Source: Escherichia phage ECP_WGS_SA1. Taken from it: 64,000 nucleotides of DNA. Every line of letters begins with the position of its first letter. The first letter of the stretch is position 1. Location of the stretch: the sequence record PQ604604. One strand, 5' to 3'. Below, one piece after another: positions 2,988 through 53,042 of the stretch. The position numbers and the translations under genes are program-made. The notes under the pieces are model-generated. The model had not been told where the DNA came from. It did no database searches and saw only the letters and a list, made by a program, of their open reading frames with translations.

Positions 2988-3187
2988 NNNNNNNNNNNNN
3001 NNNNNNNNNNNNNNNNNNNNNNNNNNNNNNNNNNNNNNNNNNNNNNNNNNNNNNNNNNNNNNNNNNNNNNNNNNNNNNNNNNNNNNNNNNNNNNNNNNNN
3101 NNNNNNNNNNNNNNNNNNNNNNNNNNNNNNNNNNNNNNNNNNNNNNNNNNNNNNNNNNNNNNNNNNNNNNNNNNNNNNNNNNNNNNN
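2988..3187. other. Run of N (masked or unknown bases)
   Basis: Read directly. Confidence 0.99.
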
Positions 3188-3370
3188 TTTAAAATCGTCT
3201 CCTTATAATACCCTTCCGTTACTAATAGGCCGCGCTTAGTCGCGGCTTTTCTTCGTCCCTATCTCGATGCGCTTCTCCGCGAAAACTCCTTTATCCTTCC
3301 CTTCGTCGTCGCATAATCTTCGTCGAGATGCGCCTTAGTTCGCATAACAGGTATTACGTTAAATGGAGAA

Positions 3371-3452
3371 CATCGCGTAAGTCCTTGTTTTATATAGACA
3401 CCTATATCGGACCGTTAGGGAGGGTCGCGTAAGTCGTTGTTTTATAAAGGCG
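3371..3452 (+). repeat. Two direct copies of CGCGTAAGTCnTTGTTTTATA in an ORF-poor segment
   Basis: Read directly; shares the TTTTATA core with the 2454 and 2851 elements. Confidence 0.6.
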
Positions 3453-3725
3453 CAAAACTTTCCCTTCGTTCCGAACTAAAACGAGAAATATGCCGACCCT
3501 TCGCCCGAAAATAGTACGCATACGAAATTACCGACATCTAGAATAATCCGCGCCGATATTATCCTACACGCAATCATTAGCCTTCGAATCATTATGCTTC
3601 ATATTATTATGCTTCGAATCATTCGCTTTCGAATTGTAACGCTGAAAACTGTAACGGCGATTGATTATTGCGTTCGTGTGGTTTTTATGGCATGGGTCTT
3701 TTGGTGCGTTTTGGTACTTGATGAA

Positions 3726-3836
3726 ATTTGCAGTACACTAATCAAAATACGACACATTTGGTCCACTAACTTTTCAAAGAAAAAGTCCTAGACAGTACCG
3801 TACTATTTTGTGCCCACAGTAAATTTGCAGTACACT
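3726..3836 (+). repeat. Two copies of ATTTGCAGTACACT (3726-3739, 3823-3836), a variant of the ATTTGCACTAT family
   Basis: Read directly. Confidence 0.7.
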
Positions 3837-3905
3837 CCTGCGCGGCAGACAAAATAAAGGGCCGCCACAGCGACCCACGATTCACGGTTAAATCAGCAAC
3901 ACCCA

Positions 3906-4286
3906 CTATTCGCTCTTATGGGCATCACCAAAGCCATCCGCAATCTGGCTGATCAATGATTCAATGGACACAGTTTTACCAATTGATCGAGCGGTAATAG
4001 CAAGCATATTATCAATCAAACCATGATTGGATGCATATGATCCAGGTTTTGAATCATCTTCATGACAACCAAAAAGCTGGTCGCGAAGACTTTCAAGAGA
4101 ACGCTCAATATTTTCCAGCTTCTCTTCTAAATCAGATTGGCGACGTAAAACCCATGTTAAGTCGCGGTTGCCGACTTCCAATCCATCAGAATCGCAAGAT
4201 GGAACGTCAATTTTGATACTTCCACCAAAGGCCATTCCGCTGCCTTTAGCATATGTGCCGTGAATAGAATCATTCTTATTTGACAT
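3906..4286 (-). CDS. Hypothetical protein, about 126 aa
   Basis: ORF 3906..4316; start moved to the Met preceded by GAAAGG. Confidence 0.45.
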   Translation of the reverse strand: MSNKNDSIHGTYAKGSGMAFGGSIKIDVPSCDSDGLEVGNRDLTWVLRRQSDLEEKLENIERSLESLRDQLFGCHEDDSKPGSYASNHGLIDNMLAITARSIGKTVSIESLISQIADGFGDAHKSE

Positions 4287-4359
4287 ATCATTACCTTTCA
4301 TGAGGGTGATTAACAATAACTATAATAAAGCCGCATAGCGCGGCATTCAAATCGGTTTG

Positions 4360-4572
4360 TTAATTGTAACGATTGGATTCATCAATCGATACCAACTGCG
4401 CAGGGTCGCCGGATACTGTCGCACCGATAACGCCCATCTGCTGAAAGAACTCTGAATAAACTTCCTTCCAGTATTTACGCGCTGCTTTCTGAGCCTGTCC
4501 TTTGCGCTTGAAGCTTTTACCTTTTACCTTGAAAGATGAAACGGTCGCTTGCCGCGCGATACTCCACCACAC
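4360..4572 (-). CDS. Hypothetical basic protein, 70 aa
   Basis: ORF only. Confidence 0.35.
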   Translation of the reverse strand: MWWSIARQATVSSFKVKGKSFKRKGQAQKAARKYWKEVYSEFFQQMGVIGATVSGDPAQLVSIDESNRYN

Positions 4573-4622
4573 CTTCCAGCCATTGTAAGAACGCTACTGA
4601 TTCATTTTGATTCATGTTAACC

Positions 4623-5078
4623 TCAATATTTTAATAAGAAAGCACCCAACCAACTTTCCTCAACCTCGCGGCCAGTAGCCACACGGTCGGTCTTTGCTAT
4701 GGGTCTGGATTTGCCGCAAGGTAATCCATCTTGTAGTTGTGTACTATTGCCAATTCTCACCAGAACCTTTCCATCAGGGTCGATATAAGCGCGACAACCC
4801 ATGATTTCGAGTCGTTGTAGACACTGGCGAATCGTTTTCAGCCTTTCACCGGACCGGATAGAGCGCATCCTAGACCGCTGACCGTTTTTATTCACTGTCC
4901 GCTTAACGACCGGAATCTCATTGGTGCGTTTCGCTTTCGGTCGGTAATAGGCTTCTTCGCCAGGAGTCGCACCTGGCGTCAATTCACGCTTGAGCGCCTT
5001 TTCAATATCGATGATCATAATTATGCCGCAGCAGCGTGGATGATTACGTAAACTATGCCAAATAGCGCGGCAATACAT
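4623..5078 (-). CDS. Hypothetical basic protein (R/K-rich, possibly nucleic-acid binding); start uncertain
   Basis: ORF; no clear RBS. Confidence 0.35.
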   Translation of the reverse strand: MYCRAIWHSLRNHPRCCGIIMIIDIEKALKRELTPGATPGEEAYYRPKAKRTNEIPVVKRTVNKNGQRSRMRSIRSGERLKTIRQCLQRLEIMGCRAYIDPDGKVLVRIGNSTQLQDGLPCGKSRPIAKTDRVATGREVEESWLGAFLLKY

Positions 5079-5111
5079 ACCGTGCCCCAGAATGCAAAGC
5101 GTCGTGACTCT

Positions 5112-5321
5112 TTATCCATTGTCCACCGCTCCAATATCCTTCAAGAACTTGTGCAAGTCACCTTTCTTATTAAGCTTTTGCATAGTTTTGATATCATCAA
5201 GTGATATGCCTTGATCGCTTTGTTGTTTGTCAATGCAGACAATGCCGCCTTTCTTGGCCTTGATTGTCATGCCTTTGGCTTCAATACTTTTTACGAAATC
5301 GGACAATAATTTAATTTCCAT
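5112..5321 (-). CDS. Hypothetical protein, 69 aa; start abuts an N-run
   Basis: ORF only. Confidence 0.35.
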   Translation of the reverse strand: MEIKLLSDFVKSIEAKGMTIKAKKGGIVCIDKQQSDQGISLDDIKTMQKLNKKGDLHKFLKDIGAVDNG

Positions 5322-5666
5322 NNNNNNNNNNNNNNNNNNNNNNNNNNNNNNNNNNNNNNNNNNNNNNNNNNNNNNNNNNNNNNNNNNNNNNNNNNNNNNN
5401 NNNNNNNNNNNNNNNNNNNNNNNNNNNNNNNNNNNNNNNNNNNNNNNNNNNNNNNNNNNNNNNNNNNNNNNNNNNNNNNNNNNNNNNNNNNNNNNNNNNN
5501 NNNNNNNNNNNNNNNNNNNNNNNNNNNNNNNNNNNNNNNNNNNNNNNNNNNNNNNNNNNNNNNNNNNNNNNNNNNNNNNNNNNNNNNNNNNNNNNNNNNN
5601 NNNNNATACACCTCACTTGTTAACGTATAATGAGTATAACTTAATAGCGCATAAAGTAAAGGCGCT

Positions 5667-7070
5667 NNNAGCGCCTTGAGTGAATTATTTNGCTGCNTTC
5701 AGCGCGACTATNTCTGNNNNNNNNNNNNNNNNNNNNNNNNNNNNNNNNNNNNNNNNNNNNNNNNNNNNNNNNNNNNNNNNNNNNNNNNNNNNNNNNNNNN
5801 NNNNNNNNNNNNNNNNNNNNNNNNNNNNNNNNNNNNNNNNNNNNNNNNNNNNNNNNNNNNNNNNNNNNNNNNNNNNNNNNNNNNNNNNNNNNNNNNNNNN
5901 NNNNNNNNNNNNNNNNNNNNNNNNNNNNNNNNNNNNNNNNNNNNNNNNNNNNNNNNNNNNNNNNNNNNNNNNNNNNNNNNNNNNNNNNNNNNNNNNNNNN
6001 NNNNNNNNNNNNNNNNNNNNNNNNNNNNNNNNNNNNNNNNNNNNNNNNNNNNNNNNNNNNNNNNNNNNNNNNNNNNNNNNNNNNNNNNNNNNNNNNNNNN
6101 NNNNNNNNNNNNNNNNNNNNNNNNNNNNNNNNNNNNNNNNNNNNNNNNNNNNNNNNNNNNNNNNNNNNNNNNNNNNNNNNNNNNNNNNNNNNNNNNNNNN
6201 NNNNNNNNNNNNNNNNNNNNNNNNNNNNNNNNNNNNNNNNNNNNNNNNNNNNNNNNNNNNNNNNNNNNNNNNNNNNNNNNNNNNNNNNNNNNNNNNNNNN
6301 NNNNNNNNNNNNNNNNNNNNNNNNNNNNNNNNNNNNNNNNNNNNNNNNNNNNNNNNNNNNNNNNNNNNNNNNNNNNNNNNNNNNNNNNNNNNNNNNNNNN
6401 NNNNNNNNNNNNNNNNNNNNNNNNNNNNNNNNNNNNNNNNNNNNNNNNNNNNNNNNNNNNNNNNNNNNNNNNNNNNNNNNNNNNNNNNNNNNNNNNNNNN
6501 NNNNNNNNNNNNNNNNNNNNNNNNNNNNNNNNNNNNNNNNNNNNNNNNNNNNNNNNNNNNNNNNNNNNNNNNNNNNNNNNNNNNNNNNNNNNNNNNNNNN
6601 NNNNNNNNNNNNNNNNNNNNNNNNNNNNNNNNNNNNNNNNNNNNNNNNNNNNNNNNNNNNNNNNNNNNNNNNNNNNNNNNNNNNNNNNNNNNNNNNNNNN
6701 NNNNNNNNNNNNNNNNNNNNNNNNNNNNNNNNNNNNNNNNNNNNNNNNNNNNNNNNNNNNNNNNNNNNNNNNNNNNNNNNNNNNNNNNNNNNNNNNNNNN
6801 NNNNNNNNNNNNNNNNNNNNNNNNNNNNNNNNNNNNNNNNNNNNNNNNNNNNNNNNNNNNNNNNNNNNNNNNNNNNNNNNNNNNNNNNNNNNNNNNNNNN
6901 NNNNNNNNNNNNNNNNNNNNNNNNNNNNNNNNNNNNNNNNNNNNNNNNNNNNNNNNNNNNNNNNNNNNNNNNNNNNNNNNNNNNNNNNNNNNNNNNNNNN
7001 NNNNNNNNNNNNNNNNNNNNNNNNNNNNNNNNNNNNNNNNNNNNNNNNNNNNNNNNNNNNNNNNNNNNNN
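5667..7070. other. Almost fully masked block of N; adjacent N-runs at 5322-5605, 7194-7307 and 7354-7611
   Basis: Read directly. Confidence 0.99.
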
Positions 7071-8009
7071 NAGCAATTGTCCGTCTGCAACGACTTCATA
7101 CGGTTGAATATATGCACGACTGTCACGNAAGTGAAAATCACCAACNCCATAGTTCATNACACCGTTCATGCTTGGGCCAACGGTGCCTGTGTTNNNNNNN
7201 NNNNNNNNNNNNNNNNNNNNNNNNNNNNNNNNNNNNNNNNNNNNNNNNNNNNNNNNNNNNNNNNNNNNNNNNNNNNNNNNNNNNNNNNNNNNNNNNNNNN
7301 NNNNNNNTGATCCTGTGCCNCCCATGGAAGTTGGGACGATGCTTTGATCAGCNNNNNNNNNNNNNNNNNNNNNNNNNNNNNNNNNNNNNNNNNNNNNNNN
7401 NNNNNNNNNNNNNNNNNNNNNNNNNNNNNNNNNNNNNNNNNNNNNNNNNNNNNNNNNNNNNNNNNNNNNNNNNNNNNNNNNNNNNNNNNNNNNNNNNNNN
7501 NNNNNNNNNNNNNNNNNNNNNNNNNNNNNNNNNNNNNNNNNNNNNNNNNNNNNNNNNNNNNNNNNNNNNNNNNNNNNNNNNNNNNNNNNNNNNNNNNNNN
7601 NNNNNNNNNNNGATGCACCAGCATTTGCTGATTGATGATATTGACCAAACCATGAACCAGTCAAGGCATTGAGATTTATTCCGTTAGGAATCTCTCCAAA
7701 GTTTCGGACAGTACCCGTCAAAGTTGCGGCAGTGGTTCGAATAGAAAGCATGTCGCCAGCCGCCCATGCACGCGCTGCAGTTCCTTCCTGTGCACGCTGC
7801 ACGGTCAGGACGTTTCCAACAACGGCTGTTACTGTGACGATTTCGAATTGGAGGCCTGTTGCGGCGTCAACGATTGTCGCCACTACACGCTCGTTTGCGC
7901 CCAAGGTCGGAAAGCCCGACCCTGAGCGAATTGTGATTGTGGTGTCTGAAGTCGTCGTTGGCTGAGCGAGCGCGACCTCAAAGTTGTTTTTGAATATTAG
8001 CCTTGGCAT
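5685..8009 (-). CDS. Putative tail fibre or receptor-binding-like protein; largely masked by N, 3' end uncertain
   Basis: Long ORF with GAGGA upstream of the ATG at 8009; readable N-terminal 130 aa is rich in T/S/G/V as in phage fibre N-termini. Confidence 0.4.
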   Translation of the reverse strand: MPRLIFKNNFEVALAQPTTTSDTTITIRSGSGFPTLGANERVVATIVDAATGLQFEIVTVTAVVGNVLTVQRAQEGTAARAWAAGDMLSIRTTAATLTGTVRNFGEIPNGINLNALTGSWFGQYHQSANAGAXXXXXXXXXXXXXXXXXXXXXXXXXXXXXXXXXXXXXXXXXXXXXXXXXXXXXXXXXXXXXXXXXXXXXXXXXXXXXXXXXXXXXXXADQSIVPTSMXGTGSXXXXXXXXXXXXXXXXXXXXXXXXXXXXXXXXXXXXXXNTGTVGPSMNGXMNYXVGDFHXRDSRAYIQPYEVVADGQLXXXXXXXXXXXXXXXXXXXXXXXXXXXXXXXXXXXXXXXXXXXXXXXXXXXXXXXXXXXXXXXXXXXXXXXXXXXXXXXXXXXXXXXXXXXXXXXXXXXXXXXXXXXXXXXXXXXXXXXXXXXXXXXXXXXXXXXXXXXXXXXXXXXXXXXXXXXXXXXXXXXXXXXXXXXXXXXXXXXXXXXXXXXXXXXXXXXXXXXXXXXXXXXXXXXXXXXXXXXXXXXXXXXXXXXXXXXXXXXXXXXXXXXXXXXXXXXXXXXXXXXXXXXXXXXXXXXXXXXXXXXXXXXXXXXXXXXXXXXXXXXXXXXXXXXXXXXXXXXXXXXXXXXXXXXXXXXXXXXXXXXXXXXXXXXXXXXXXXXXXXXXXXXXXXXXXXXXXXXXXXXXXXXXXXXXXXXXXXXXXXXXXXXXXXXXXXXXXXXXXXXXXXXXXXXXXXXXXXXXXXXXXXXXXXXXXXIVALXAXK

Positions 8010-38949: not shown

Positions 38950-39927
38950 TTAAAAATACTCCATATCGGTAATATCACGGAAGCACTTATACAAGGCAGA
39001 GCGCGGCACGTCAACGATGCCAAAGTTAAAGAATTTATATGTCAGATACTTGTTGCGATAATTCTCGCGATTCTCCCAAAGCATTTTTCTCTCTGCCATA
39101 GGCATTGAACCAGCGGAGACGCGGAAAGGAATCATTTCACCTTTCTCATCAACATATTTTGGATTGACAACCACAAATGATCCAAGGTATCCTTTTGCAA
39201 CCAAGCCTTCAGCCTCTTTCGAACGCTTAGTGCGACCCAACTCATCAATGAATGCTTCGTTGTTGTTCTCCATCATCTCAACGAAGTCTATGATCAGCCC
39301 TTCTTCATCGGTCCACGGCTTGTCCTTCCACACATCACGTGACTTTGGCGTCGCGCGGCCATGCTTGTATTTGCCCGTCCAAGACTTGCCATACAAGCCT
39401 TCATAGCCAAGCTGGTCTGCTTCGATTTGCATCGCCGCGTACTGTTCCATATTTTCGATGTTTCGATATTCGAGAGCGCGAAGGAATGGGCGTCGACCAT
39501 GGTTGATGAGGTGCTGATTGACTTCAGCAACTCTAGCGCGATATTTTGCATAACGCTTTTCAAAAGGCAAATCAGGGTCGCTGAAGTCATCAAACACCCA
39601 CCATGTAAAGTTAGTGATTGCATCAGTGTTCATGCATGCAGTATAGGCCTGTTGCATGACGTTCTTGTCGTTCGGATTACCGTCAATTAGCTCTCCATCA
39701 AGTCCGTGAATCAATTCACCCAAGAATAGGAACTCTTTTTTGATTTGAATATTGCGCAGCGCCATGCCGGACGTGCCCATTGGCAAGTTGTCATACGCCA
39801 TCGCGCGTATGCCATCGACCTTGAAGGATAATCCGCAAGGCAGCGGCACATCTTCGCCGCGCTCGATGATTTGTTTACGCTGGCAGCCTTTCATTGGTTT
39901 TAATGCTTTGATTTCTCCTGCCATCAC
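38950..39927 (-). CDS. ATP-dependent DNA ligase
   Basis: Adenylation motif I KVDGIR near the N-terminus; later EGLVAK-like motif. Confidence 0.65.
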   Translation of the reverse strand: MMAGEIKALKPMKGCQRKQIIERGEDVPLPCGLSFKVDGIRAMAYDNLPMGTSGMALRNIQIKKEFLFLGELIHGLDGELIDGNPNDKNVMQQAYTACMNTDAITNFTWWVFDDFSDPDLPFEKRYAKYRARVAEVNQHLINHGRRPFLRALEYRNIENMEQYAAMQIEADQLGYEGLYGKSWTGKYKHGRATPKSRDVWKDKPWTDEEGLIIDFVEMMENNNEAFIDELGRTKRSKEAEGLVAKGYLGSFVVVNPKYVDEKGEMIPFRVSAGSMPMAERKMLWENRENYRNKYLTYKFFNFGIVDVPRSALYKCFRDITDMEYF

Positions 39928-40517
39928 TCAAACTCCTTATTCATCACTTGTTCCAGCGCATAGGCGTAAGACTGATCAGTCGATTTGATGAACGTTCCGT
40001 TGTACATCACACCTTTACGGTCCTTGATGTCTTCATAGGCGGCTTGAGCGCAATCAGACAGTCGAAGTCCATAATCATGCGCTACGCCGGAAAGATAATC
40101 GACTGCGGCCATTATGGTGACATCAATATCCATACTCTGATTTTTAGCAATGGCGTCACCAAGCCGTCCGAGAGTCTTTGCCAAGCGAAGGATAAACGAG
40201 TGAGGGTGGGCACCTTTGTCAGCGCAACCGCCGCCGTTGATGTCTTCGATTTTTGCACCATTTTGCGCGGCAAGAATAGTTAACACAACAAGGCAATCGC
40301 CGATGTCATCCTTGATTGCAGCTTGTAAATCACAGATGGCCTGCTCTGTATATCCGATTTCAGTGTCAAAGAACACAAGGTCATGTAATTGATCAACGTG
40401 GTCGGTCAACTCCCCAAACTCGCTAATAAGCTTCGGGTATTGGTCCTTAAGGTCGCAGCCTTGGATGATGTTACGGTCAGAAGCCCACTGGCGAATGTTT
40501 GCATAAATCTGGTTCAT
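39924..40517 (-). CDS. Putative MazG-like nucleotide pyrophosphohydrolase
   Basis: Acidic helical motifs (EFGELTDHV); weak call. Confidence 0.3.
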   Translation of the reverse strand: MNQIYANIRQWASDRNIIQGCDLKDQYPKLISEFGELTDHVDQLHDLVFFDTEIGYTEQAICDLQAAIKDDIGDCLVVLTILAAQNGAKIEDINGGGCADKGAHPHSFILRLAKTLGRLGDAIAKNQSMDIDVTIMAAVDYLSGVAHDYGLRLSDCAQAAYEDIKDRKGVMYNGTFIKSTDQSYAYALEQVMNKEFE

Positions 40518-41089: not shown

Positions 41090-41950
41090 TTAAAACTCTT
41101 CTGCGTCGGTCGGAGTTTCGTTGACAGGACCAGCGGCACCGCTTGCTTCTTCCTGCTTGCTGCGGTCGATGTTAACGTTGCCGCCAACTACGTCGTTGTG
41201 GAACGCTTTGGCGACTTCGTACAGGCCTTTATCCTGCACCAGACCTTCCAGCTCAAACTTCAGAACTGACCAGGTGTTGCCATCTTTGGACTGAGACGCA
41301 GTACCCATGCGAACGATGTTCATAAAGGTCGGCGGAGTTTTCAGACCCTGCGGAGTCTGAACTTTCTTCTGCTGCAGAGCGGTCATCAGCATGCGAGACG
41401 GCTTGATCATGGAAGAAGTAAGAGACAGCATTGCGCTACCAAATTCGCCAGTTTCTTCGTTCAACAGGATCACGAAGTGGTTACGTGTGTCTGCGTAGTA
41501 AGGTGATTTCTTCTCGTGCACTTTGCCGTTTTCATCCGGCACAAATACCTTACCGTTGATTTCAACAGCGCGGCCTGCCGCGACTTCTGCATCAACGTGC
41601 TCTTTGGTGAATTCACCTTTAAAGCCTTTATCGTCGGACTCGCGACCGCCCCAAAGGATGAAGGTGCGTTTGAATGCGCAAGGGATGATCTGCACACCTT
41701 TCTTGCCGTCATACAATTCACCAGTAACGGTGTTGTACAGCATGCCAGCTTTTGCGCCAGGCACGTGTTTTGGATCATCTTCGTCGACCATCGGAGACAT
41801 CTTTTGCAGTACGACGATAAAAGGAATGGCATAAGCGTCGGCATCGGCACCTTCAAAGCCAGCGCCAAAATCGGTCATATCGACAAAATCAGCCATAGCG
41901 GACATCTGGGTGTTTTTCACTGCAACTTCGGTAGTTTCTTTCTTAGACAT
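41090..41950 (-). CDS. Hypothetical protein, 286 aa; possibly ssDNA-binding or annealing
   Basis: Guess from genomic context only. Confidence 0.35.
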   Translation of the reverse strand: MSKKETTEVAVKNTQMSAMADFVDMTDFGAGFEGADADAYAIPFIVVLQKMSPMVDEDDPKHVPGAKAGMLYNTVTGELYDGKKGVQIIPCAFKRTFILWGGRESDDKGFKGEFTKEHVDAEVAAGRAVEINGKVFVPDENGKVHEKKSPYYADTRNHFVILLNEETGEFGSAMLSLTSSMIKPSRMLMTALQQKKVQTPQGLKTPPTFMNIVRMGTASQSKDGNTWSVLKFELEGLVQDKGLYEVAKAFHNDVVGGNVNIDRSKQEEASGAAGPVNETPTDAEEF

Positions 41951-42009: not shown

Positions 42010-42567
42010 TTACTTTTTGCTTTTAGGCAAGGTTATTTTAGCTTCTTTATACTCAAAAACGCTAATATCTTCACTAACTGGATTACCCGCTTCCAGCTGT
42101 TCTTTAACAAATGACTTCAGTGTAGCAGAATGAACGCCTTGTTTCAACGTGGCTTCAACACCGTCTTCACGCAGCGCAGCAACAATCTCTTGCGCTTGCT
42201 CGATTTCTTCGCGACCGAACTCAGCCGTGACGCTGGACTTGATCAAGCCGCCGTAACCGTTGTTGACAAGCCAATCGAATACCTTCAATTCATTTTCTTT
42301 CTTGATTGAAGCATTTACTTTTGACTCGACCTTGATTTTGGTCTTGTCTTCAAGCTTGATTTCGGACACGCCAAGCTCATCCATGACGCCAGGAAGCAGA
42401 ACAGTTTTGATTTCACTGATGCGCTGCTTTTGCATATCAGCTTCATCTTCAAGCTCTGTCAAAGCTTCTTGGCGTTCTGCCAATTCCGATACTAAGCGCG
42501 CAAGGCGCTCTTGAATGCTCTCAGGAGCGACCTGCGGCAAATCATCTTCCCAATTAATGTTGCTCAT
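42010..42567 (-). CDS. Hypothetical acidic coiled-coil protein, 185 aa
   Basis: ORF. Confidence 0.4.
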   Translation of the reverse strand: MSNINWEDDLPQVAPESIQERLARLVSELAERQEALTELEDEADMQKQRISEIKTVLLPGVMDELGVSEIKLEDKTKIKVESKVNASIKKENELKVFDWLVNNGYGGLIKSSVTAEFGREEIEQAQEIVAALREDGVEATLKQGVHSATLKSFVKEQLEAGNPVSEDISVFEYKEAKITLPKSKK

Positions 42568-48270: not shown

Positions 48271-48324
48271 ATTGGCCTCCTACAAAAAGGCCGCCCATTA
48301 GGACGGCCACAGATTTAAGATTCG

Positions 48325-48876
48325 TTATACAGTGTACGGAGTACCGTCTTGATTCAACCGCACAATGAACTTAAGGTCGACACCGATGATCTCACGCGTA
48401 TCAAAGATAACATAGTTGTAACGACGCTGACCAGCAATATTTGGGTTGGTGTGAGAGTCGGTTACGACTTCCTGCGCAACCTGAATGCCTTCTTCTTTAA
48501 AGAACTTGCGCCATTCAGCAAGTTCAGCGGCAGTCACGTGCATGCCAAGATGGCTAACCTGATTGTCATGCGCATCGATGTATTCGATGTTTTCGTGAAT
48601 CCAGTTGCAACCTTTTGTATAGTCAAGAATTTCAAGCTCAAGAGGCTTACCAGCGCCGCCATCGGTGCCGTTGCCAGCCTGATAGTTGAAGCGCAAGTCA
48701 GCTTCGTTGGTGCAATCGCCGCGCTGACCCTTAAAGACATCAGCTTCAAATACGCGACCAGTAGCAACAACGTGATCATGGAACCATTCTGTCAGGCCGA
48801 TTTTAGCCAGGAAATTCTGTGCGCGCTGAGCACCTGGAATTGACAGGGCGATTTGTTCAATTTTAAAATGTGGCAT
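48325..48876 (-). CDS. Hypothetical protein, 183 aa (possibly VOC/glyoxalase-like fold)
   Basis: ORF; weak resemblance only. Confidence 0.35.
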   Translation of the reverse strand: MPHFKIEQIALSIPGAQRAQNFLAKIGLTEWFHDHVVATGRVFEADVFKGQRGDCTNEADLRFNYQAGNGTDGGAGKPLELEILDYTKGCNWIHENIEYIDAHDNQVSHLGMHVTAAELAEWRKFFKEEGIQVAQEVVTDSHTNPNIAGQRRYNYVIFDTREIIGVDLKFIVRLNQDGTPYTV

Positions 48877-48966: not shown

Positions 48967-49650
48967 TTATTTCCCAAATGGAATATCAGTACCAGACATA
49001 AAGCGCCATGCGCCCGTAATTAAGATATGGCGAATGAAGTCAGCAATTACTTGCGGCTCAGTCTCCAATCCATTCATCAGCGCCTTTTTCTGGTATTCAG
49101 CAGCATACTCAGGAGTCCAGCCGCGAGTCGCGCAAACAGCATCTTCAATCTGTTTGGACATGCCAGTACCACGTAGCTTATTAGGACTAATAGAAAATAC
49201 CGTGATCCCGTATTTAGGCGTAAGCTCGTGAGCCATCTGCTTGCTAATCATGAGCGCAGCAGCCTTGGAAGCATTATAACACAAGCTGGACGTCATAGGA
49301 ATATGCGCAGCGTTGGAAACGATATTGATCACAAAACCTTTGTTGTCGATAAGACTTTTCAGCGCGGCTTGAGTCGTGTTGACGAAAGAGAAGGCGTTGG
49401 TGTGCATAACGCGATTGAACTCTTCGTAGTTAACATCTTCAAACCAGTTGTTGGAGTTGACGCCAGCACAGTTGATCAAGCCTTCTACATCATATNNNNN
49501 NNNNNNNNNNNNNNNNNNNNNNNNNNNNNNNNNNNNNNNNNNNNNNNNNNNNNNNNNNNNNNNNNNNNNATGACCGTAAGCGCCAAGGGTGTCAAAAATA
49601 GATTTACCAAGACCGGAATTGGAACCTGTTACAACAATTACTTTTTTCAT
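48967..49650 (-). CDS. Short-chain dehydrogenase/reductase (SDR) family oxidoreductase; internal N-run
   Basis: Rossmann motif TGSNSGLGKS; catalytic YNASKAA (YxxxK). Confidence 0.65.
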   Translation of the reverse strand: MKKVIVVTGSNSGLGKSIFDTLGAYGHXXXXXXXXXXXXXXXXXXXXXXXXXYDVEGLINCAGVNSNNWFEDVNYEEFNRVMHTNAFSFVNTTQAALKSLIDNKGFVINIVSNAAHIPMTSSLCYNASKAAALMISKQMAHELTPKYGITVFSISPNKLRGTGMSKQIEDAVCATRGWTPEYAAEYQKKALMNGLETEPQVIADFIRHILITGAWRFMSGTDIPFGK

Positions 49651-49715: not shown

Positions 49716-50588
49716 CTATTTATTGAAATTAATATTGTGGGTGTTGACGAGACGTTCACACATGGCGCTGTAAACACCATCGTCGTGTATAGAGTCTTCG
49801 TGCTTCAGGCCGCTGATTGCAAAGCGTGTAAGCTTGACAATCTTAAGCTCGAACAGATGCCACATGTGGTAGTCTTCCGGCGTTTTCAACGTTACGCCAT
49901 TAGGGAAAAGCACCTGCATAACCTGGCCAACCATCACGGCATTATCGCCATAGACAGCGTTGCGCTCACGGAAGGTTGCTGCCATTGCATCAAGAATATC
50001 GGCGGCAGTTGCCGGAGATTGTTCAACTTCCACAGCCTTAGTCTCTTCTTGCCCCGTTGCGCTTGGATCAATTGCTAATTGTTGCACCACTTCACCTGCC
50101 TTGCAAAGATTAAACGTAAAAGCGATTTTATTTTGCGCAACGGAATTATAATACAAGGCTTCATCTTGCATCCGCGCGAGTACGTCTTGTCGGTCGTCGA
50201 ATACATTGATGATTCTATAATCGCCGTGCCGCAATGCGTGCGATAGCCATGCAGATTTCATAATAGTTGATGGACGTTTGTCGCCATAGTCTCTCATCTT
50301 GATTGTAAATTCATCAAAAGGAAAAACATTGTCCAGACGTTCAAAAGTCACTTGTCTGTATTTTTCTGGCCTTGCAGTCCAATATTCAACCGCCTCACCG
50401 CGAAGAGATGCCGACTCTACTGCTGATGCAATGTGAGGATAGAACTGATCATAACCAATACCGCTGTGATAGTCATCATAGTCTGACAACGGACCTGCCA
50501 CCTTGATGCGGTCTAAACGCCAACGGTCATCAAACAGCGTTCCGTCAAGGTCGAATACGTTTAAGATTTCGCTGTTTTTAATGCTCAT
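49716..50588 (-). CDS. HAD-superfamily phosphatase domain fused to an uncharacterised C-terminal domain
   Basis: HAD motif I FDLDGTLFDD at the N-terminus; C-terminal 140 aa unassigned. Confidence 0.5.
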   Translation of the reverse strand: MSIKNSEILNVFDLDGTLFDDRWRLDRIKVAGPLSDYDDYHSGIGYDQFYPHIASAVESASLRGEAVEYWTARPEKYRQVTFERLDNVFPFDEFTIKMRDYGDKRPSTIMKSAWLSHALRHGDYRIINVFDDRQDVLARMQDEALYYNSVAQNKIAFTFNLCKAGEVVQQLAIDPSATGQEETKAVEVEQSPATAADILDAMAATFRERNAVYGDNAVMVGQVMQVLFPNGVTLKTPEDYHMWHLFELKIVKLTRFAISGLKHEDSIHDDGVYSAMCERLVNTHNINFNK

Positions 50589-51388
50589 CCTTTTGATACT
50601 CCATCTTTAGCAACTGGATTGTTGGTGATTGGCATCGCATTCCAAAACTGGATGCGCAACTCTTCTTGCTGTGCCGTGGTATCCATCCAATCACGATACC
50701 ACGGGCAATGGGCTTTACCGTGACGAGGAAACGCGCACTTACCCATACCGATGCATTGCGGCTGCAGTAATGGATTCGCCCACGGGTGCACCTTGAGGAC
50801 TTCCGCAACCATTGCGCGGAACACTTCTTGATACTCTCCTTGTGTGCGCGTGCACAAGCGGTTGGAAGCCATCTGTTGCAGCGTGCGCAAGTTGAACTTT
50901 GCCATGATATGCGTTTGCATATTAGAAGGCAACACGGCACGTGCATCTTGAATCTCTGCGCCAGCCGCGCGAAGCTCTTGATACAAAGCATCGATAGTCG
51001 CCATCGCATCGTCCCANNNNNNNNNNNNNNNNNNNNNNNNNNNNNNNNNNNNNNNNNNNNNNNNNNNNNNNNNNNNNNNNNNNNNNNNNNNNNNNGGACG
51101 AATCGCATCAAACGCAGATGATTCCTGAGCGCGGCTTGTGCGTTCTTGATATGCGCCTGTGCGTGTGCGTACCATCTGATGCGTCATGTTCTTTGATACA
51201 TCTGTGATGTCAAATATATAGTCCACAAAGTCAAAAGGCGACTTGATTGTATCAAGCATGTAGCGCCAATGCTCTTGCTTCTCTGATTCCGTCATCTCAG
51301 AGACAGGCTTACCAGTCATGCGCGTGTTCTTTGTTTCCAGCAAAAGGTCAAGTGCATCTTGGGTGTATCGAATTAATTCAACTTTCAT
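50585..51388 (-). CDS. Flavin-dependent thymidylate synthase (ThyX)-like protein with a non-canonical signature; internal N-run
   Basis: Segments ARAVLPSN..T and C-terminal CPW align with ThyX; signature position reads RTR where RHR is expected. Confidence 0.55.
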   Translation of the reverse strand: MKVELIRYTQDALDLLLETKNTRMTGKPVSEMTESEKQEHWRYMLDTIKSPFDFVDYIFDITDVSKNMTHQMVRTRTGAYQERTSRAQESSAFDAIRXXXXXXXXXXXXXXXXXXXXXXXXXXXWDDAMATIDALYQELRAAGAEIQDARAVLPSNMQTHIMAKFNLRTLQQMASNRLCTRTQGEYQEVFRAMVAEVLKVHPWANPLLQPQCIGMGKCAFPRHGKAHCPWYRDWMDTTAQQEELRIQFWNAMPITNNPVAKDGVSKG

Positions 51389-51401: not shown

Positions 51402-51848
51402 TTAACGGTAATTCACTAGTTGCTGATCACCAGAGAAGGTGCAATGATAAACGAATTGTGCGTTATAAAGCAACTGAAAACTTTTCTTTGGTTCATTATT
51501 AGAACTCATTGATGTAAAGATTTCTGCACCAGAACGGTTTTCACCAATCAGATTGATAAAGCCGCCAGTTGAACGAGGCTGGACGAAAGTGAAACGTTGC
51601 ACCCACGGAGTACGGTTGGCACCTTTCCCTGTGAATCCCTGAATCTGAATATTCAGACCTTCTTGCTCGTTAACACCGATGTAAGTGGTAATCTTTGCAC
51701 CAGTCGTTGCTGCGGTCTTACCGTCCATCGCTTCGCAATCGTAAACAGCGATTGAATCGGAAGTACGGATGGCAGCTTCAGTCGCTTCCATATACATGGT
51801 GCCGAGAATAGCAGTCGCGGCAAGAGCGATTCCAGTGATTCGTTTCAT
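51402..51848 (-). CDS. Secreted protein, 148 aa
   Basis: Signal-peptide-like N-terminus MKRITGIALAATAILG. Confidence 0.45.
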   Translation of the reverse strand: MKRITGIALAATAILGTMYMEATEAAIRTSDSIAVYDCEAMDGKTAATTGAKITTYIGVNEQEGLNIQIQGFTGKGANRTPWVQRFTFVQPRSTGGFINLIGENRSGAEIFTSMSSNNEPKKSFQLLYNAQFVYHCTFSGDQQLVNYR

Positions 51849-51913: not shown

Positions 51914-52909
51914 TTATTTATTAGCAATATAAGCAAATTTTTGATAGTTATTTGCTTTGATGAGTTTTTCAACTTCAACAAGGTCATGAGCGACGTCATC
52001 AAGCAAAATGTTGCGCCAGGTAGCAAATCGACCGACACTGAACACGTTCAAATCCATAGTCAGCTGCAGGAGTAGGGCGTGTCGCAAGTCTTTCGGAATG
52101 TCGACAATCTTGCCATATTTCTGGTCGACCTTTTCAACTTCTTCAAGAGCGATGTCACTCCATGAAAGGCCAAATGCAGTCAACACTTCGTCGACTTCTG
52201 CGCGAAGCTTCATGTCACGGTAACGAGTGATGCCGCCGGCAGCTTCAACTGCAGCTTCACTTACGCTGACTAAAGGAATTGTTTCAATGATAAGCGTGTC
52301 ACCAGTAATTGATGCGCGGTAAGTTCTGACGGAGTAGTCAGGGAAGTAAATTGTCTGATACAAATCACACTTACGTTTAATCTTAAAGCGGTAAACGCGA
52401 ATGTTTGCTTTATCAAATGAGAAATCAAGCTTTTGATCAATCCCAGCCAGCTTCATCATGACTGGCAGCGGCGACGTATTGATGATTGGTGTCTCGCTAT
52501 AGCCACAAAGAGTATCAACCGGAGTATTAAAGAATATGCGGTCACCCAGTTTGTCGACAAGCTGATCATAAAAGTCATCAGGCGCAATATAACGCGTTGC
52601 AGCCTTAAGCTTCATGATTGAACGGCTACCAAACTGATTGGTGACCTTCATGGAATACATATTGGCAAGGTTAATTGGGCAATGGTCGTGGTAGTAGTTG
52701 CCGCGAAAATACACAGCCTTGTCAACTGTCACGGCCTTAAAGGGGATTCCGGTAATACGGCTTACTTCTTCGCCACGGAAGCGTAGCAACGCCTTGTGCT
52801 GTTGCACCCGTTCCCCTGCTTCGTACACAATAGAGTTCGGGAAGTGACACGCTGTGATAAGTCCTGCTAATCCGCCGCCGATAATCATTACAGGTTGTTT
52901 CATGTTCAT
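51914..52909 (-). CDS. FAD/NAD(P)-binding oxidoreductase
   Basis: N-terminal dinucleotide-binding motif VMIIGGGLAGL; AAAGGA RBS. Confidence 0.5.
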   Translation of the reverse strand: MNMKQPVMIIGGGLAGLITACHFPNSIVYEAGERVQQHKALLRFRGEEVSRITGIPFKAVTVDKAVYFRGNYYHDHCPINLANMYSMKVTNQFGSRSIMKLKAATRYIAPDDFYDQLVDKLGDRIFFNTPVDTLCGYSETPIINTSPLPVMMKLAGIDQKLDFSFDKANIRVYRFKIKRKCDLYQTIYFPDYSVRTYRASITGDTLIIETIPLVSVSEAAVEAAGGITRYRDMKLRAEVDEVLTAFGLSWSDIALEEVEKVDQKYGKIVDIPKDLRHALLLQLTMDLNVFSVGRFATWRNILLDDVAHDLVEVEKLIKANNYQKFAYIANK

Positions 52910-53042
52910 TTGTCCTTTGTGGGTGATATGAGAAGTATAATAGCTAAATTATTTTACAGCAACAAGTCATTTTATTTAGTACAGATGAAAAAAAGACCCA
53001 CAACAAGTGTGGGTCAATTACCGCTGCATAACCGTCCTAAGG

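Follow-up and report, generated by a model that had tools for sequence, protein, structure and literature searches.

The window analysed here is a 64,000-nucleotide stretch of Escherichia phage ECP_WGS_SA1 (record PQ604604), a Wifcevirus with about 97% identity to phage WFH. Within it, two terminator-like hairpins bracket six genes, one of which carries an existing annotation as a flavin-dependent thymidylate synthase (ThyX). From upstream to downstream, the unit and the features inside its ThyX-like gene are:

52995..53015, minus strand: terminator-like hairpin that precedes the unit; NC_048194 annotates it as a terminator
51914..52909, minus strand: putative UGM/PPO-type FAD protein (phrog_4828) that carries GGGLAG near its N-terminus; its gene opens the unit and is a conserved upstream partner
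51402..51848, minus strand: small ORF (148 aa) whose N-terminus resembles a signal peptide, lying between the genes of the two flavoenzymes
50585..51388, minus strand: ThyX-like (Thy1-fold) ORF of 267 aa with an ATG start, ortholog of WFH gp065 and PB1 gp61
51245..51247, minus strand: Ile48, aligned to the position of T. maritima His53, which stacks on folate and reduced flavin (PMC11940539)
51131..51169, minus strand: motif region R74-T-R-T-G-A-Y-Q-E-R-T84-S-R86, aligned to ThyX R78-H-R-x7-S88-G-R90 (HMMER against PDB ThyX, MAFFT mapping)
51128..51130, minus strand: Ala87, aligned to T. maritima Tyr91, which is proposed as general acid and as partner of H53 (PMC11940539)
51017..51095, no strand: masked stretch (N-run) inside the ThyX-like ORF, covering an insert of low conservation that separates the motif from helix 113-141
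50705..50854, minus strand: four cysteines (C179 in R-L-C, C212, C218 and C228) and A-F-P-R-x-G, a putative metal site with its last three Cys in a C-terminal extension
49716..50588, minus strand: HAD phosphatase (PNKP-type, DLDGT motif; Pfam HAD_PNKP, E=5e-8) joined to a conserved domain of about 110 aa at the C-terminus, here called HAD-X
48967..49650, minus strand: short-chain dehydrogenase/reductase (SDR, FabG-like; Pfam adh_short, E=1e-31)
48325..48876, minus strand: gp062, 183 aa, possibly VOC/glyoxalase-like (weak Glyoxalase_4 match, E=0.09), last gene of the unit
48289..48308, minus strand: terminator-like hairpin that follows the unit, likewise a terminator in the NC_048194 annotation

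The ORF at 50585-51388 is an intact Thy1/ThyX-fold protein, as an earlier note on this DNA had recognised by eye. It matches the Pfam profile PF02511 over positions 2-191 of 191 (E=1.7e-27; score 96.9 bits, cut-off 24.8), and structural prediction agrees, since the best PDB match of its AF2 model (pLDDT 87) in Foldseek is T. maritima ThyX (1o27 and others; E ~2e-10, TM ~0.75). A full-length ortholog with 48% identity, PB1 gp61, is found in Pbunavirus. The run of Ns that interrupts the gene begins at 51017, rather than at 51007 as first noted, and the masked residues can be recovered from the WFH ortholog (PAKFTYPEDDPKGWTRHDEKAAELAEK). Against TIGR02170, the curated ThyX equivalog with a cut-off of 87.9 bits, the window protein (72.8 bits, masked) and an unmasked ortholog (P0001, 83.1 bits) both fall short. 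Among other non-canonical members, P0230 scores 81.5 bits, while PB1 (88.0) and P0150 (93.8) just pass; the controls, T. maritima ThyX and the canonical P0250, reach 227 and 183 bits.

The same note had reported that threonine replaces the histidine of the ThyX signature R-H-R-x7-S, and alignment bears this out. The peptide VRTRTGAYQERTSRA is present in the ORF, with R74-T75-R76 at nt 51161-51169. In a HMMER alignment to the solved T. maritima ThyX, R-T-R falls on R78-H79-R80 and the motif serine S88 is matched by T84, so that the protein reads R-T-R-x7-T. No RHR lies elsewhere in the protein, the masked part (with WFH residues) included, because RTR is the sole R-x-R of the unmasked ortholog scanned for this pattern. 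Every one of the 120 homologs compared, down to about 53% identity, has RTR, as do 78 of 81 loci (80 from IMG/VR and that of Rhizobium phage TM39), which rules out a sequencing artefact, a one-off mutation or a chance variant.

Position 79 (T. maritima numbering) varies within the wider subfamily, with T in 71, H in 21, Q in 14, S in 9 and N in 6 of 124 non-canonical representatives, and Thr also occurs there on an otherwise canonical background (P0226). In solved ThyX structures, the motif His only hydrogen-bonds the phosphate and ribityl groups of FAD (PMC6514825), and Thr could make the same contacts. The change from His79 to Thr is the least diagnostic of the protein's differences, and the earlier emphasis on it was misplaced. 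Because the position toggles between T and H, His79 appears to be dispensable in this scaffold, which favours a functional but divergent flavin-dependent thymidylate synthase that makes dTMP from dUMP for the dTTP supply of fast replication. This explanation is nearly as likely as the one preferred below, and further points for it are the clear Thy1 family membership and fold, and the position of PB1 and P0150 just above the TIGR02170 cut-off.

The active site differs from that of T. maritima ThyX at several further positions. In T. maritima numbering, the substitutions are H53I, H59F, H79T, N85Q, S88T and Y91A, and the H53/N85/Y91 triad is represented by I48, Q81 and A87. The subfamily likewise has Ile for H53, Phe for H59 and Ala for Y91, and replaces N85. 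H53, N85 and Y91 are replaced in 122 of 136 representatives, H53 and Y91 co-vary (11 / 122 / 3 in the same 136), and about 40% of members differ at S88. Y91 and N85 of T. maritima ThyX hold H53 in place through hydrogen bonds (PMC11940539). Y91 and S88 have been called strictly conserved and critical in ThyX, and mutation of Y91 makes flavin oxidation about 1000-fold slower (PMC11940539). That Y91, S88 and H53 are missing or changed argues against a divergent synthase, under which other residues, or a partner such as the UGM/PPO-type flavoprotein acting as its reductase, would have to make up for the lost triad.

The predicted binding sites are retained. Residues of the dUMP site (Q75, R78, R90, R147 and R174 in T. 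maritima) are kept as Q71, R74, R86, R150 and R177, all of them invariant (the arginines in 72 of 72 aligned sequences). Those of the FAD site (S/T55, E58, R78, R80, N163 and R165) correspond to S50, D53, R74, R76, N166 and R168, with D53 being E in most relatives. On the strength of these residues, it is proposed that the protein still binds FAD and dUMP, and their full retention also counts for a divergent synthase. Nothing points to a change of nucleotide substrate, for example to dCMP, since the arginines that bind uracil and phosphate have all been retained.

Loss of residues that are critical in canonical ThyX, together with a score below the equivalog cut-off, might also point to a ThyX relic that is inactive or in decay and has lost any catalytic function. 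This is scarcely credible in view of the strong purifying conservation (79 invariant columns over 72 aligned sequences, every substrate- and FAD-binding arginine among them), the hundreds of family members (360 cluster representatives at E<1e-10), and the intact ORF, confident model and conserved operon position.

The mechanistically relevant differences, which the earlier note had not picked up, are the loss of H53, N85 and Y91, the change at S88, a C-terminal four-cysteine extension and conserved gene partners. The extension of about 60 aa, which distinguishes the window protein from canonical ThyX, holds three of the four invariant cysteines. Its C228-P-W had been taken for the C-terminal C-P-W of ThyX; the C-P-W of T. 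maritima aligns instead with H201-P-W203, and the extension is absent from that enzyme. The Cys motif is invariant in 72 of 72 aligned sequences of the Wifcevirus/Pbunavirus-type clade, and the region is modelled at pLDDT ~93. In the wider subfamily, 38 of 81 loci carry the four-Cys site, which makes it an accessory feature; with 43 of 81 loci lacking it, it was rejected as a subfamily-defining one.

By sequence comparison, the ThyX-like protein appears to belong to a deep, large and almost only viral subfamily, which looks virus-restricted. Cellular lineages using the non-canonical type were sought in 185,579 species genomes. The scan found the type only on seven small phage-like MAG contigs; the relatives on chromosomes, those of Melainabacteria, are all canonical ThyX. 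Canonical thyX passes readily between viruses and cells (PMC2826268), and that the scan found the subfamily on the chromosome of no cellular lineage is a point against a divergent synthase. Long family members contain inteins inside the domain and unannotated N-terminal regions, with no other fusion partners. Inteins are typical of core nucleotide-metabolism enzymes, and their position inside the domain speaks for a divergent synthase.

The two flavoenzyme genes are closely linked. The UGM/PPO-like gene lies directly upstream of the ThyX-like gene in 79 of 80 viral loci (38-99% identity), and counts across phage groups match. On the other side, the start of HAD-X overlaps the ThyX-like stop by 4 nt, and the HAD-X C-terminal domain follows the ThyX-like gene in 76 of 80 viral loci and also in Rhizobium phages; in one locus (L170) this domain is a separate ORF. 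The SDR gene is accessory, being present in about half of loci and missing from Pbunavirus, and gp062 co-occurs with it in nearly all loci that have gp062. The module of UGM/PPO-like, ThyX-like and HAD-X genes is also found in the unrelated 207-kb jumbo Rhizobium phage RHph_Y65. A divergent synthase gives no obvious reason for this linkage in two unrelated phage families, and a change of substrate or chemistry gains support from the gene context. Common descent of a conserved replication module might account for part of this gene order, since DNA polymerase is syntenic too.

Other neighbours suit a divergent synthase. In Rhizobium phages, the ThyX-like gene adjoins those for dUTPase and RNR, and the LFQ branch has a dCMP deaminase gene close to it; Rhizobium phage TM39 has kept its ThyX-like gene and lost the UGM-like gene. 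A validated ThyA query found no ThyA-family gene in the window or in the whole genome of the Wifcevirus Bas99, leaving the ThyX-like gene as the sole thymidylate-synthase-superfamily gene available. No dNMP kinase, 5-HMUDK-type kinase, aminoacyl or glycosyltransferase was recognised among the neighbours or in the genome with Pfam, PHROGs and NCBIfam. The small ORF at 51402-51848 had no matches in family profile searches, and searching PDB, Pfam and NCBIfam with the sequences of phrog_4828, phrog_4765, the HAD C-terminal domain, gp066 and gp062 yielded nothing informative. Conserved uncharacterised neighbours comprise phrog_4765, the HAD C-terminal domain, a Pam3_gp34-like protein and DUF7307.

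PB1 gp61 and F8 ORF059, labelled 'FAD-dependent thymidylate synthase', share with the window protein the RTR, I53, F59 and A91 signature and the Cys motif. Flanking genes common to Wifcevirus and PB1 are those for Dda helicase, phrog_4765, the UGM/PPO-like protein, HAD-X and DNA polymerase. PB1 differs in that its Cys module is enlarged by an insert of about 38 aa, several small ORFs separate the flavoenzyme genes, and SDR and gp062 are missing. Hypermodified DNA is shown for Pbunavirus; for Wifcevirus, what is reported is resistance to restriction-modification systems.

In the Pbunavirus phages F8 and 14-1, sugar-type modified T with nucleoside masses of 362 and 390 was detected by LC-MS in 2025 (PMC12191111). 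The modified form accounts for about a quarter of the Ts, lies in TG context and occurs without known modification genes; one novel nucleoside was reported per phage, and free 5-hmdU was not mentioned (PMC12191111). Arithmetically, 362 and 390 equal 5-hmdU plus tetritol or pentose minus water, and 26.5% of the window's Ts lie in TG. Phages of Wifcevirus, a related coliphage genus, resist restriction by no known mechanism, with insensitivity to EcoRI and EcoRV reported; the window contains 14 EcoRI and 7 EcoRV sites. A TG-only modification would not explain this insensitivity, but sensitivity to EcoP1_I fits the idea, because AGACC has neither TG nor CA. Pyrimidine hypermodifications known so far mostly begin with an enzyme of the thymidylate synthase superfamily (PMC13326640). 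Phage T-dioxygenases are now known as well, and a preprint on them makes no mention of Pbunavirus- or Wifcevirus-type phages.

The reading preferred here, with a probability of roughly 45%, is that the ThyX-like protein is a dUMP C5-modifying enzyme, such as a 5-hmdUMP synthase, that feeds a sugar-type thymidine hypermodification. Taken for the virus-only subfamily and held just as tentatively, this would mean that its members are not thymidylate synthases but committed flavin-dependent enzymes of an unrecognised thymidine-hypermodification pathway, making 5-hydroxymethyl-dUMP or sugar-alkylated dUMP. Such a pathway would be common to Pbunavirus, Wifcevirus, Myosmarvirus, Kleczkowskaviridae and many uncultured phages. 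The site for the carbon donor and the second half of the reaction would have been remodelled, with FAD and dUMP binding retained, and the enzyme would functionalise C5 of dUMP rather than simply make dTMP. In the simplest version, water instead of flavin hydride would capture the exocyclic-methylene intermediate to give 5-hydroxymethyl-dUMP. The partners (the UGM/PPO-type flavoprotein and HAD-X, and in some phages SDR and the VOC-like protein) would then prepare and attach a sugar or polyol. In favour of this reading are the replaced triad beside retained dUMP- and FAD-site residues, the virus-restricted distribution, the linkage to the UGM/PPO-like gene, the bracketing of six genes by two terminator-like hairpins, the modified T of Pbunavirus, the lack of a ThyA-family gene and the scores around or below the TIGR02170 cut-off. 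The fold, the residue pattern, the distribution and the gene linkage are observations, as is, in the literature, the modified T of orthologous Pbunavirus phages; we infer dUMP as the substrate, and likewise the product and any link between the ThyX-like gene and the modification.

There is a case against this preferred reading. The retained arginines would serve ordinary dTMP synthesis just as well, no kinase or glycosyltransferase is recognised, dUTPase, RNR and dCMP deaminase as neighbours are classical dTMP-pathway settings, and TM39 does without the UGM-like gene. In Pbunavirus, roughly three quarters of T stay canonical and the modification is TG-specific, a pattern that enzymes acting on thymine in DNA after replication would explain no less well than a precursor made at the nucleotide level, and phage T-dioxygenases are now known. 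The single novel nucleoside reported per phage, with no mention of free 5-hmdU, also counts against the preferred reading. The predominance of canonical T and the TG-specific modification in Pbunavirus are also in keeping with a divergent synthase, under which any DNA modification would come from other genes acting on DNA.

A different C5 alkylation may be considered, although it is improbable. Here, the reduced flavin would carry a sugar-derived rather than a folate-derived carbon and couple it reductively to dUMP. The product would be a C-C-linked polyhydroxyalkyl-dUMP, like the dihydroxypentyl-uracil of Bacillus phage SP-15, and the UGM-type partner would supply or activate the sugar. The UGM family forms flavin-N5 to sugar-C1 adducts, and the tight coupling to a UGM-type flavoenzyme gene is consistent with this chemistry, as is the loss of the folate-stacking His to an aliphatic residue. 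The sum of dU (228) and aldopentose (150) less O (16) is 362, the F8 nucleoside mass, and is isomeric with the ether-linked alternative. SP-15, with its C-C-linked pentyl-uracil, encodes two Thy1-family proteins, one of them directly after an SDR.

Compared with canonical ThyX (T. maritima TM0449, M. tuberculosis ThyX and PBCV-1 A674R), the window protein has the same fold, predicted FAD/dUMP-site residues and catalytic-domain length. It is unlike them in its RTRx7T for RHRx7S, its replaced H53, H59, N85 and Y91, its score below the equivalog cut-off, its viral-only occurrence and its linkage to partner genes absent from canonical thyX. The ThyA-family dUMP/dCMP hydroxymethylases and 5-hydroxy-dCMP synthase of phages (T4 gp42, SPO1 gp29 and RB69 gp48) have altered active sites that divert the reaction to a non-methyl C5 product, seeding DNA hypermodification. 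The likeness to them is one of functional analogy only: the Thy1 fold is unrelated to that of ThyA, and their diagnostic residue changes are experimentally verified. PolB of polyoxin biosynthesis, a ThyX paralog and UMP/dUMP C5-methylase, is a precedent for the ThyX fold in secondary nucleotide chemistry with changed specificity (PMC5954106); it differs in that it still methylates, is bacterial and lies in an antibiotic gene cluster. In SP-15, a phage with hypermodified T, the Thy1-like gp130 adjoins an SDR and has been hypothesised to make 5-hmdUMP (PMC5977210). This protein belongs to another subfamily and is extremely divergent, with most conserved arginines missing in the alignment, and gp130/gp129 were rejected as homologs of the ThyX-like/SDR pair, as no significant similarity was found.

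Few phages see more therapeutic use against P. aeruginosa than those of Pbunavirus, and the locus offers a compact candidate gene set for their T modification, consisting of the ThyX-like protein, the UGM/PPO-type flavoprotein and HAD-X, with SDR and the VOC-like protein in some phages. If the enzyme is an ordinary synthase, His53, His79 and Tyr91 would be dispensable for ThyX catalysis, which would be relevant to mechanism studies and inhibitor design. If the preferred reading is true, DNA modification would gain its first enzyme of the ThyX fold whose chemistry yields a non-methyl product. The restriction resistance of Wifcevirus would then be accounted for as well, though a TG-only form would not cover the insensitivity to EcoRI and EcoRV. 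With a product other than dTMP, the theme of phage thymidylate synthase homologs with diverted chemistry, so far limited to the ThyA fold, would reach the unrelated ThyX fold too, and the signature of non-His53, Phe59 and non-Tyr91 would find such phages in metagenomes.

The ThyX-like gene is an intact ORF of 267 codons on the minus strand (50585-51388), and one N-run (51017-51095) falls inside it. The window and the Wifcevirus Escherichia phage vB_EcoM_WFH are collinear over the 24.8 kb compared (38585-63388), with identical coordinates, ~97% identity and zero indels, and the masked ThyX-like residues were recovered from WFH as PAKFTYPEDDPKGWTRHDEKAAELAEK. The window holds 32 masked N-runs totalling 3144 bases, with runs at 2988-7611 among them. 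Among these are large masked blocks of the structural region (5717-7071), and short ones that fall within the ThyX-like gene and within that of a short-chain dehydrogenase/reductase (SDR; 49496-49569).

The encoded protein belongs to the Thy1 superfamily. It matches the Pfam Thy1 profile end to end (E=1.7e-27), and its AlphaFold model (pLDDT 87) aligns with T. maritima ThyX at a TM of ~0.75. On the curated ThyX equivalog model (cut-off 87.9), non-canonical members lie at the margin: the protein scores 83.1 and its full-length ortholog Pbunavirus PB1 gp61 (48% identity) 88.0, against 183-227 for canonical enzymes. Several features that define canonical ThyX are missing from the protein, and it should therefore not be classified as a ThyX equivalog. 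The protein also carries a C-terminal extension of ~60 residues. In the Wifcevirus/Pbunavirus-type clade, this extension and the cysteine of R-L-C together provide four invariant cysteines and an A-F-P-R-x-G motif, possibly a metal site. The feature is missing from 43 of the 81 loci of the wider subfamily (80 IMG/VR loci and Rhizobium phage TM39), and is thus accessory.

The earlier note had reported RTR in place of the RHR signature, and this observation is correct and not a chance variant: in an HMMER alignment with solved ThyX structures, R74-T75-R76 falls on R78-H79-R80 and T84 on S88, no RHR occurs anywhere in the unmasked ortholog, and RTR is found in 120/120 homologs, down to ~53% identity. 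The note had also proposed that the change could mean altered substrate or chemistry. Of the two, an altered chemistry is plausible and a switch to another nucleotide substrate is not indicated; replacement of His79, however, is not the decisive alteration. In ThyX crystal structures, the motif histidine forms hydrogen bonds only with the phosphate and ribityl groups of FAD (PMC6514825). Position 79 is variable within the non-canonical subfamily to which the protein belongs (T 71, H 21, Q 14, S 9, N 6), and protein P0226 has Thr79 on a background that is canonical in other respects.

This large subfamily emerged when 150 cluster representatives were placed on T. maritima numbering. Its members share joint changes of H53 to I/L/V, H59 to F, N85 to A/Q and Y91 to A/V/T/F, and S88 is T or A in ~40% of them. 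Co-variation of H53 and Y91 is near perfect (H/Y 11, neither 122, mixed 3, as raw counts that ignore phylogeny). In T. maritima ThyX, H53 stacks on folate pterin or on reduced flavin, and Y91 and N85 keep it in position; Y91 and S88 have been termed strictly conserved and critical, and mutation of Y91 makes flavin oxidation ~1000-fold slower (PMC11940539). The residues that bind or activate dUMP (Q75, R78, R90, R147, R174) and those that bind FAD (S55, E58, R80, N163, R165) are all conserved. Consequently, the side of the active site that handles the nucleotide is conserved, and the carbon-donor or second-half side is remodelled. An inactive ThyX remnant would be a very improbable reading. Two metagenomic non-canonical proteins, P0167 and P0268, have inteins within their Thy1 domains, and five other long family members (P0159, P0219, P0230, P0252, P0253) carry 150-350 aa at the N-terminus without a Pfam match.

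The ThyX-like protein is found in Pbunavirus, Wifcevirus and Myosmarvirus, and in phages of Xanthomonas, Pantoea, Erwinia, Burkholderia and Rhizobium. A scan of 185,579 species, one genome each, returned seven non-canonical copies only. Each of them is on a small MAG contig that bears the same phage replication genes. Relatives located on chromosomes came from Melainabacteria and were all canonical. With one peptide pattern as its query, the scan makes absence of the subfamily from cells likely and falls short of proof.

Six genes of the window lie between two strong terminator hairpins (53015-52995 and 48308-48289).

Genes of the terminator-bracketed unit
51914-52909, minus strand: GxGxxG flavoprotein (UGM/PPO-like)
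51402-51848, minus strand: small ORF, 148 aa, signal-peptide-like N-terminus (MKRITGIALAATAILG...), between both flavoenzyme genes
50585-51388, minus strand: ThyX-like gene
49716-50588, minus strand: HAD phosphatase fused to a C-terminal domain (HAD-X); 4-nt overlap between its start and the ThyX-like stop
48967-49650, minus strand: SDR
48325-48876, minus strand: gp062, possibly VOC-like, with VOC/glyoxalase-like motifs (Pfam Glyoxalase_4, E=0.09 only)

The 331-aa GxGxxG protein is conserved, has a putative fold resembling that of UDP-galactopyranose mutase or protoporphyrinogen oxidase, and matched nothing in Pfam or NCBIfam. Its public annotations are inconsistent ('hypothetical', 'oxidoreductase', 'galactopyranose', 'putative flavoenzyme' and, in RHph_Y65, 'polysaccharide deacetylase'). 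The small ORF matched no family in any library searched. The C-terminal domain of HAD-X (~110 aa, residues ~180-290) is more conserved than the HAD domain, with up to 68% identity across distant phages, forms its own ORF in some phages (viral locus L170, 9314-9649), and matched no known family. The HAD-X protein is annotated 'polynucleotide kinase/phosphorylase'.

In 79 of 80 IMG/VR loci (ThyX-like identity 38-99%), the UGM/PPO-like gene is the immediate upstream neighbour of the ThyX-like one, the sole remaining locus being cut off by a contig end, and the HAD C-terminal domain lies downstream in 76. Counts of the two flavoenzymes agree in phages of Pseudomonas (292/292), Escherichia (26/26), Serratia (9/9) and Xanthomonas (6/6), and are 10 and 8 in Rhizobium phages. 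The SDR and gp062 pair occurs in roughly half the ThyX-like loci and is missing in Pbunavirus, a pattern suggestive of an optional tailoring step; where present, gp062 adjoins the SDR in nearly all loci. The module's partner genes are missing from a distinct branch of LFQ type (P0230), which has a dCMP deaminase nearby. Genes for a MazG-like pyrophosphatase (39924-40517, minus strand), a Pam3_gp34-like protein (41090-41950, minus strand) and a DUF7307 protein (42010-42567, minus strand) also recur close to the module in distant phages (L004, L006 and L170), and may belong to the same nucleotide-handling system.

The reading we favour, with a probability of roughly 45%, is that the ThyX reaction is diverted to a non-methyl C5 product, which would seed a sugar-type modification built by the conserved partners; the simplest such product would be 5-hmdUMP. 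It is favoured by selective remodelling of the active site on its carbon-donor side, by the probable confinement of the subfamily to viruses, by a linkage to a UGM/PPO-type flavoprotein that is kept in unrelated phage families, and by the finding of no other thymidylate-synthase-superfamily gene. Neither ThyA nor dUTPase homologs were found in the window or in the whole genome of the Wifcevirus Bas99.

Almost equally likely is that the protein is a divergent but ordinary thymidylate synthase, the modification being made on DNA by other genes. The retained dUMP site is consistent with this, and so is the setting of the gene in some relatives, where it is grouped with dUTPase, RNR and deaminase genes. 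Rhizobium phage RHph_Y65 (L168), from an unrelated family with a 207-kb genome, carries the same module adjoining dUTPase and ribonucleotide reductase. Its relative RHph_TM39 (L087) has lost the UGM/PPO-like gene and kept a 99% identical ThyX-like gene, which also argues for an ordinary synthase. The stretch missing from TM39 includes several small ORFs; HAD-X, dUTPase and RNR are kept. This natural deletion could be used to ask whether the two flavoenzyme genes depend on each other.

In the Pbunavirus phages F8 and 14-1, restriction digests and LC-MS show that about a quarter of thymidines are replaced, in a TG context, by nucleosides of masses 362 and 390, described as a tetrose sugar-alcohol derivative and a cyclised aldopentose derivative. 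Emphasis was put by the study on the lack of known modification genes in these phages, and no candidates were named (PMC12191111). A partial, TG-specific modification suits post-replicative chemistry, and hence an ordinary synthase. G follows 26.5% of the T's in the window. By our arithmetic, the two masses equal 5-hydroxymethyl-dU plus tetritol or pentose minus water; 362 also equals dU plus aldopentose minus one oxygen. A sugar-alkylating variant of the enzyme would be a minor, improbable alternative. Known phage pyrimidine hypermodifications mostly derive from a non-canonical nucleotide made by a ThyA-fold thymidylate-synthase homolog (PMC13326640; PMC8989533). Bacillus phage SP-15 is the only one for which a hydroxymethylase of the Thy1 family has been hypothesised (PMC5977210), and its proteins are not specifically related to the ThyX-like protein. 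Restriction sites in the window are strongly skewed (XbaI 1, 17 expected; BsaI 1, 25 expected; HindIII 47, 17 expected; PstI 27, 12.5 expected), and TA dinucleotides are depleted (odds 0.68).

Two recent questions thereby become directly testable: the source of the modified thymidine of Pbunavirus, and the cause of restriction resistance in Wifcevirus.
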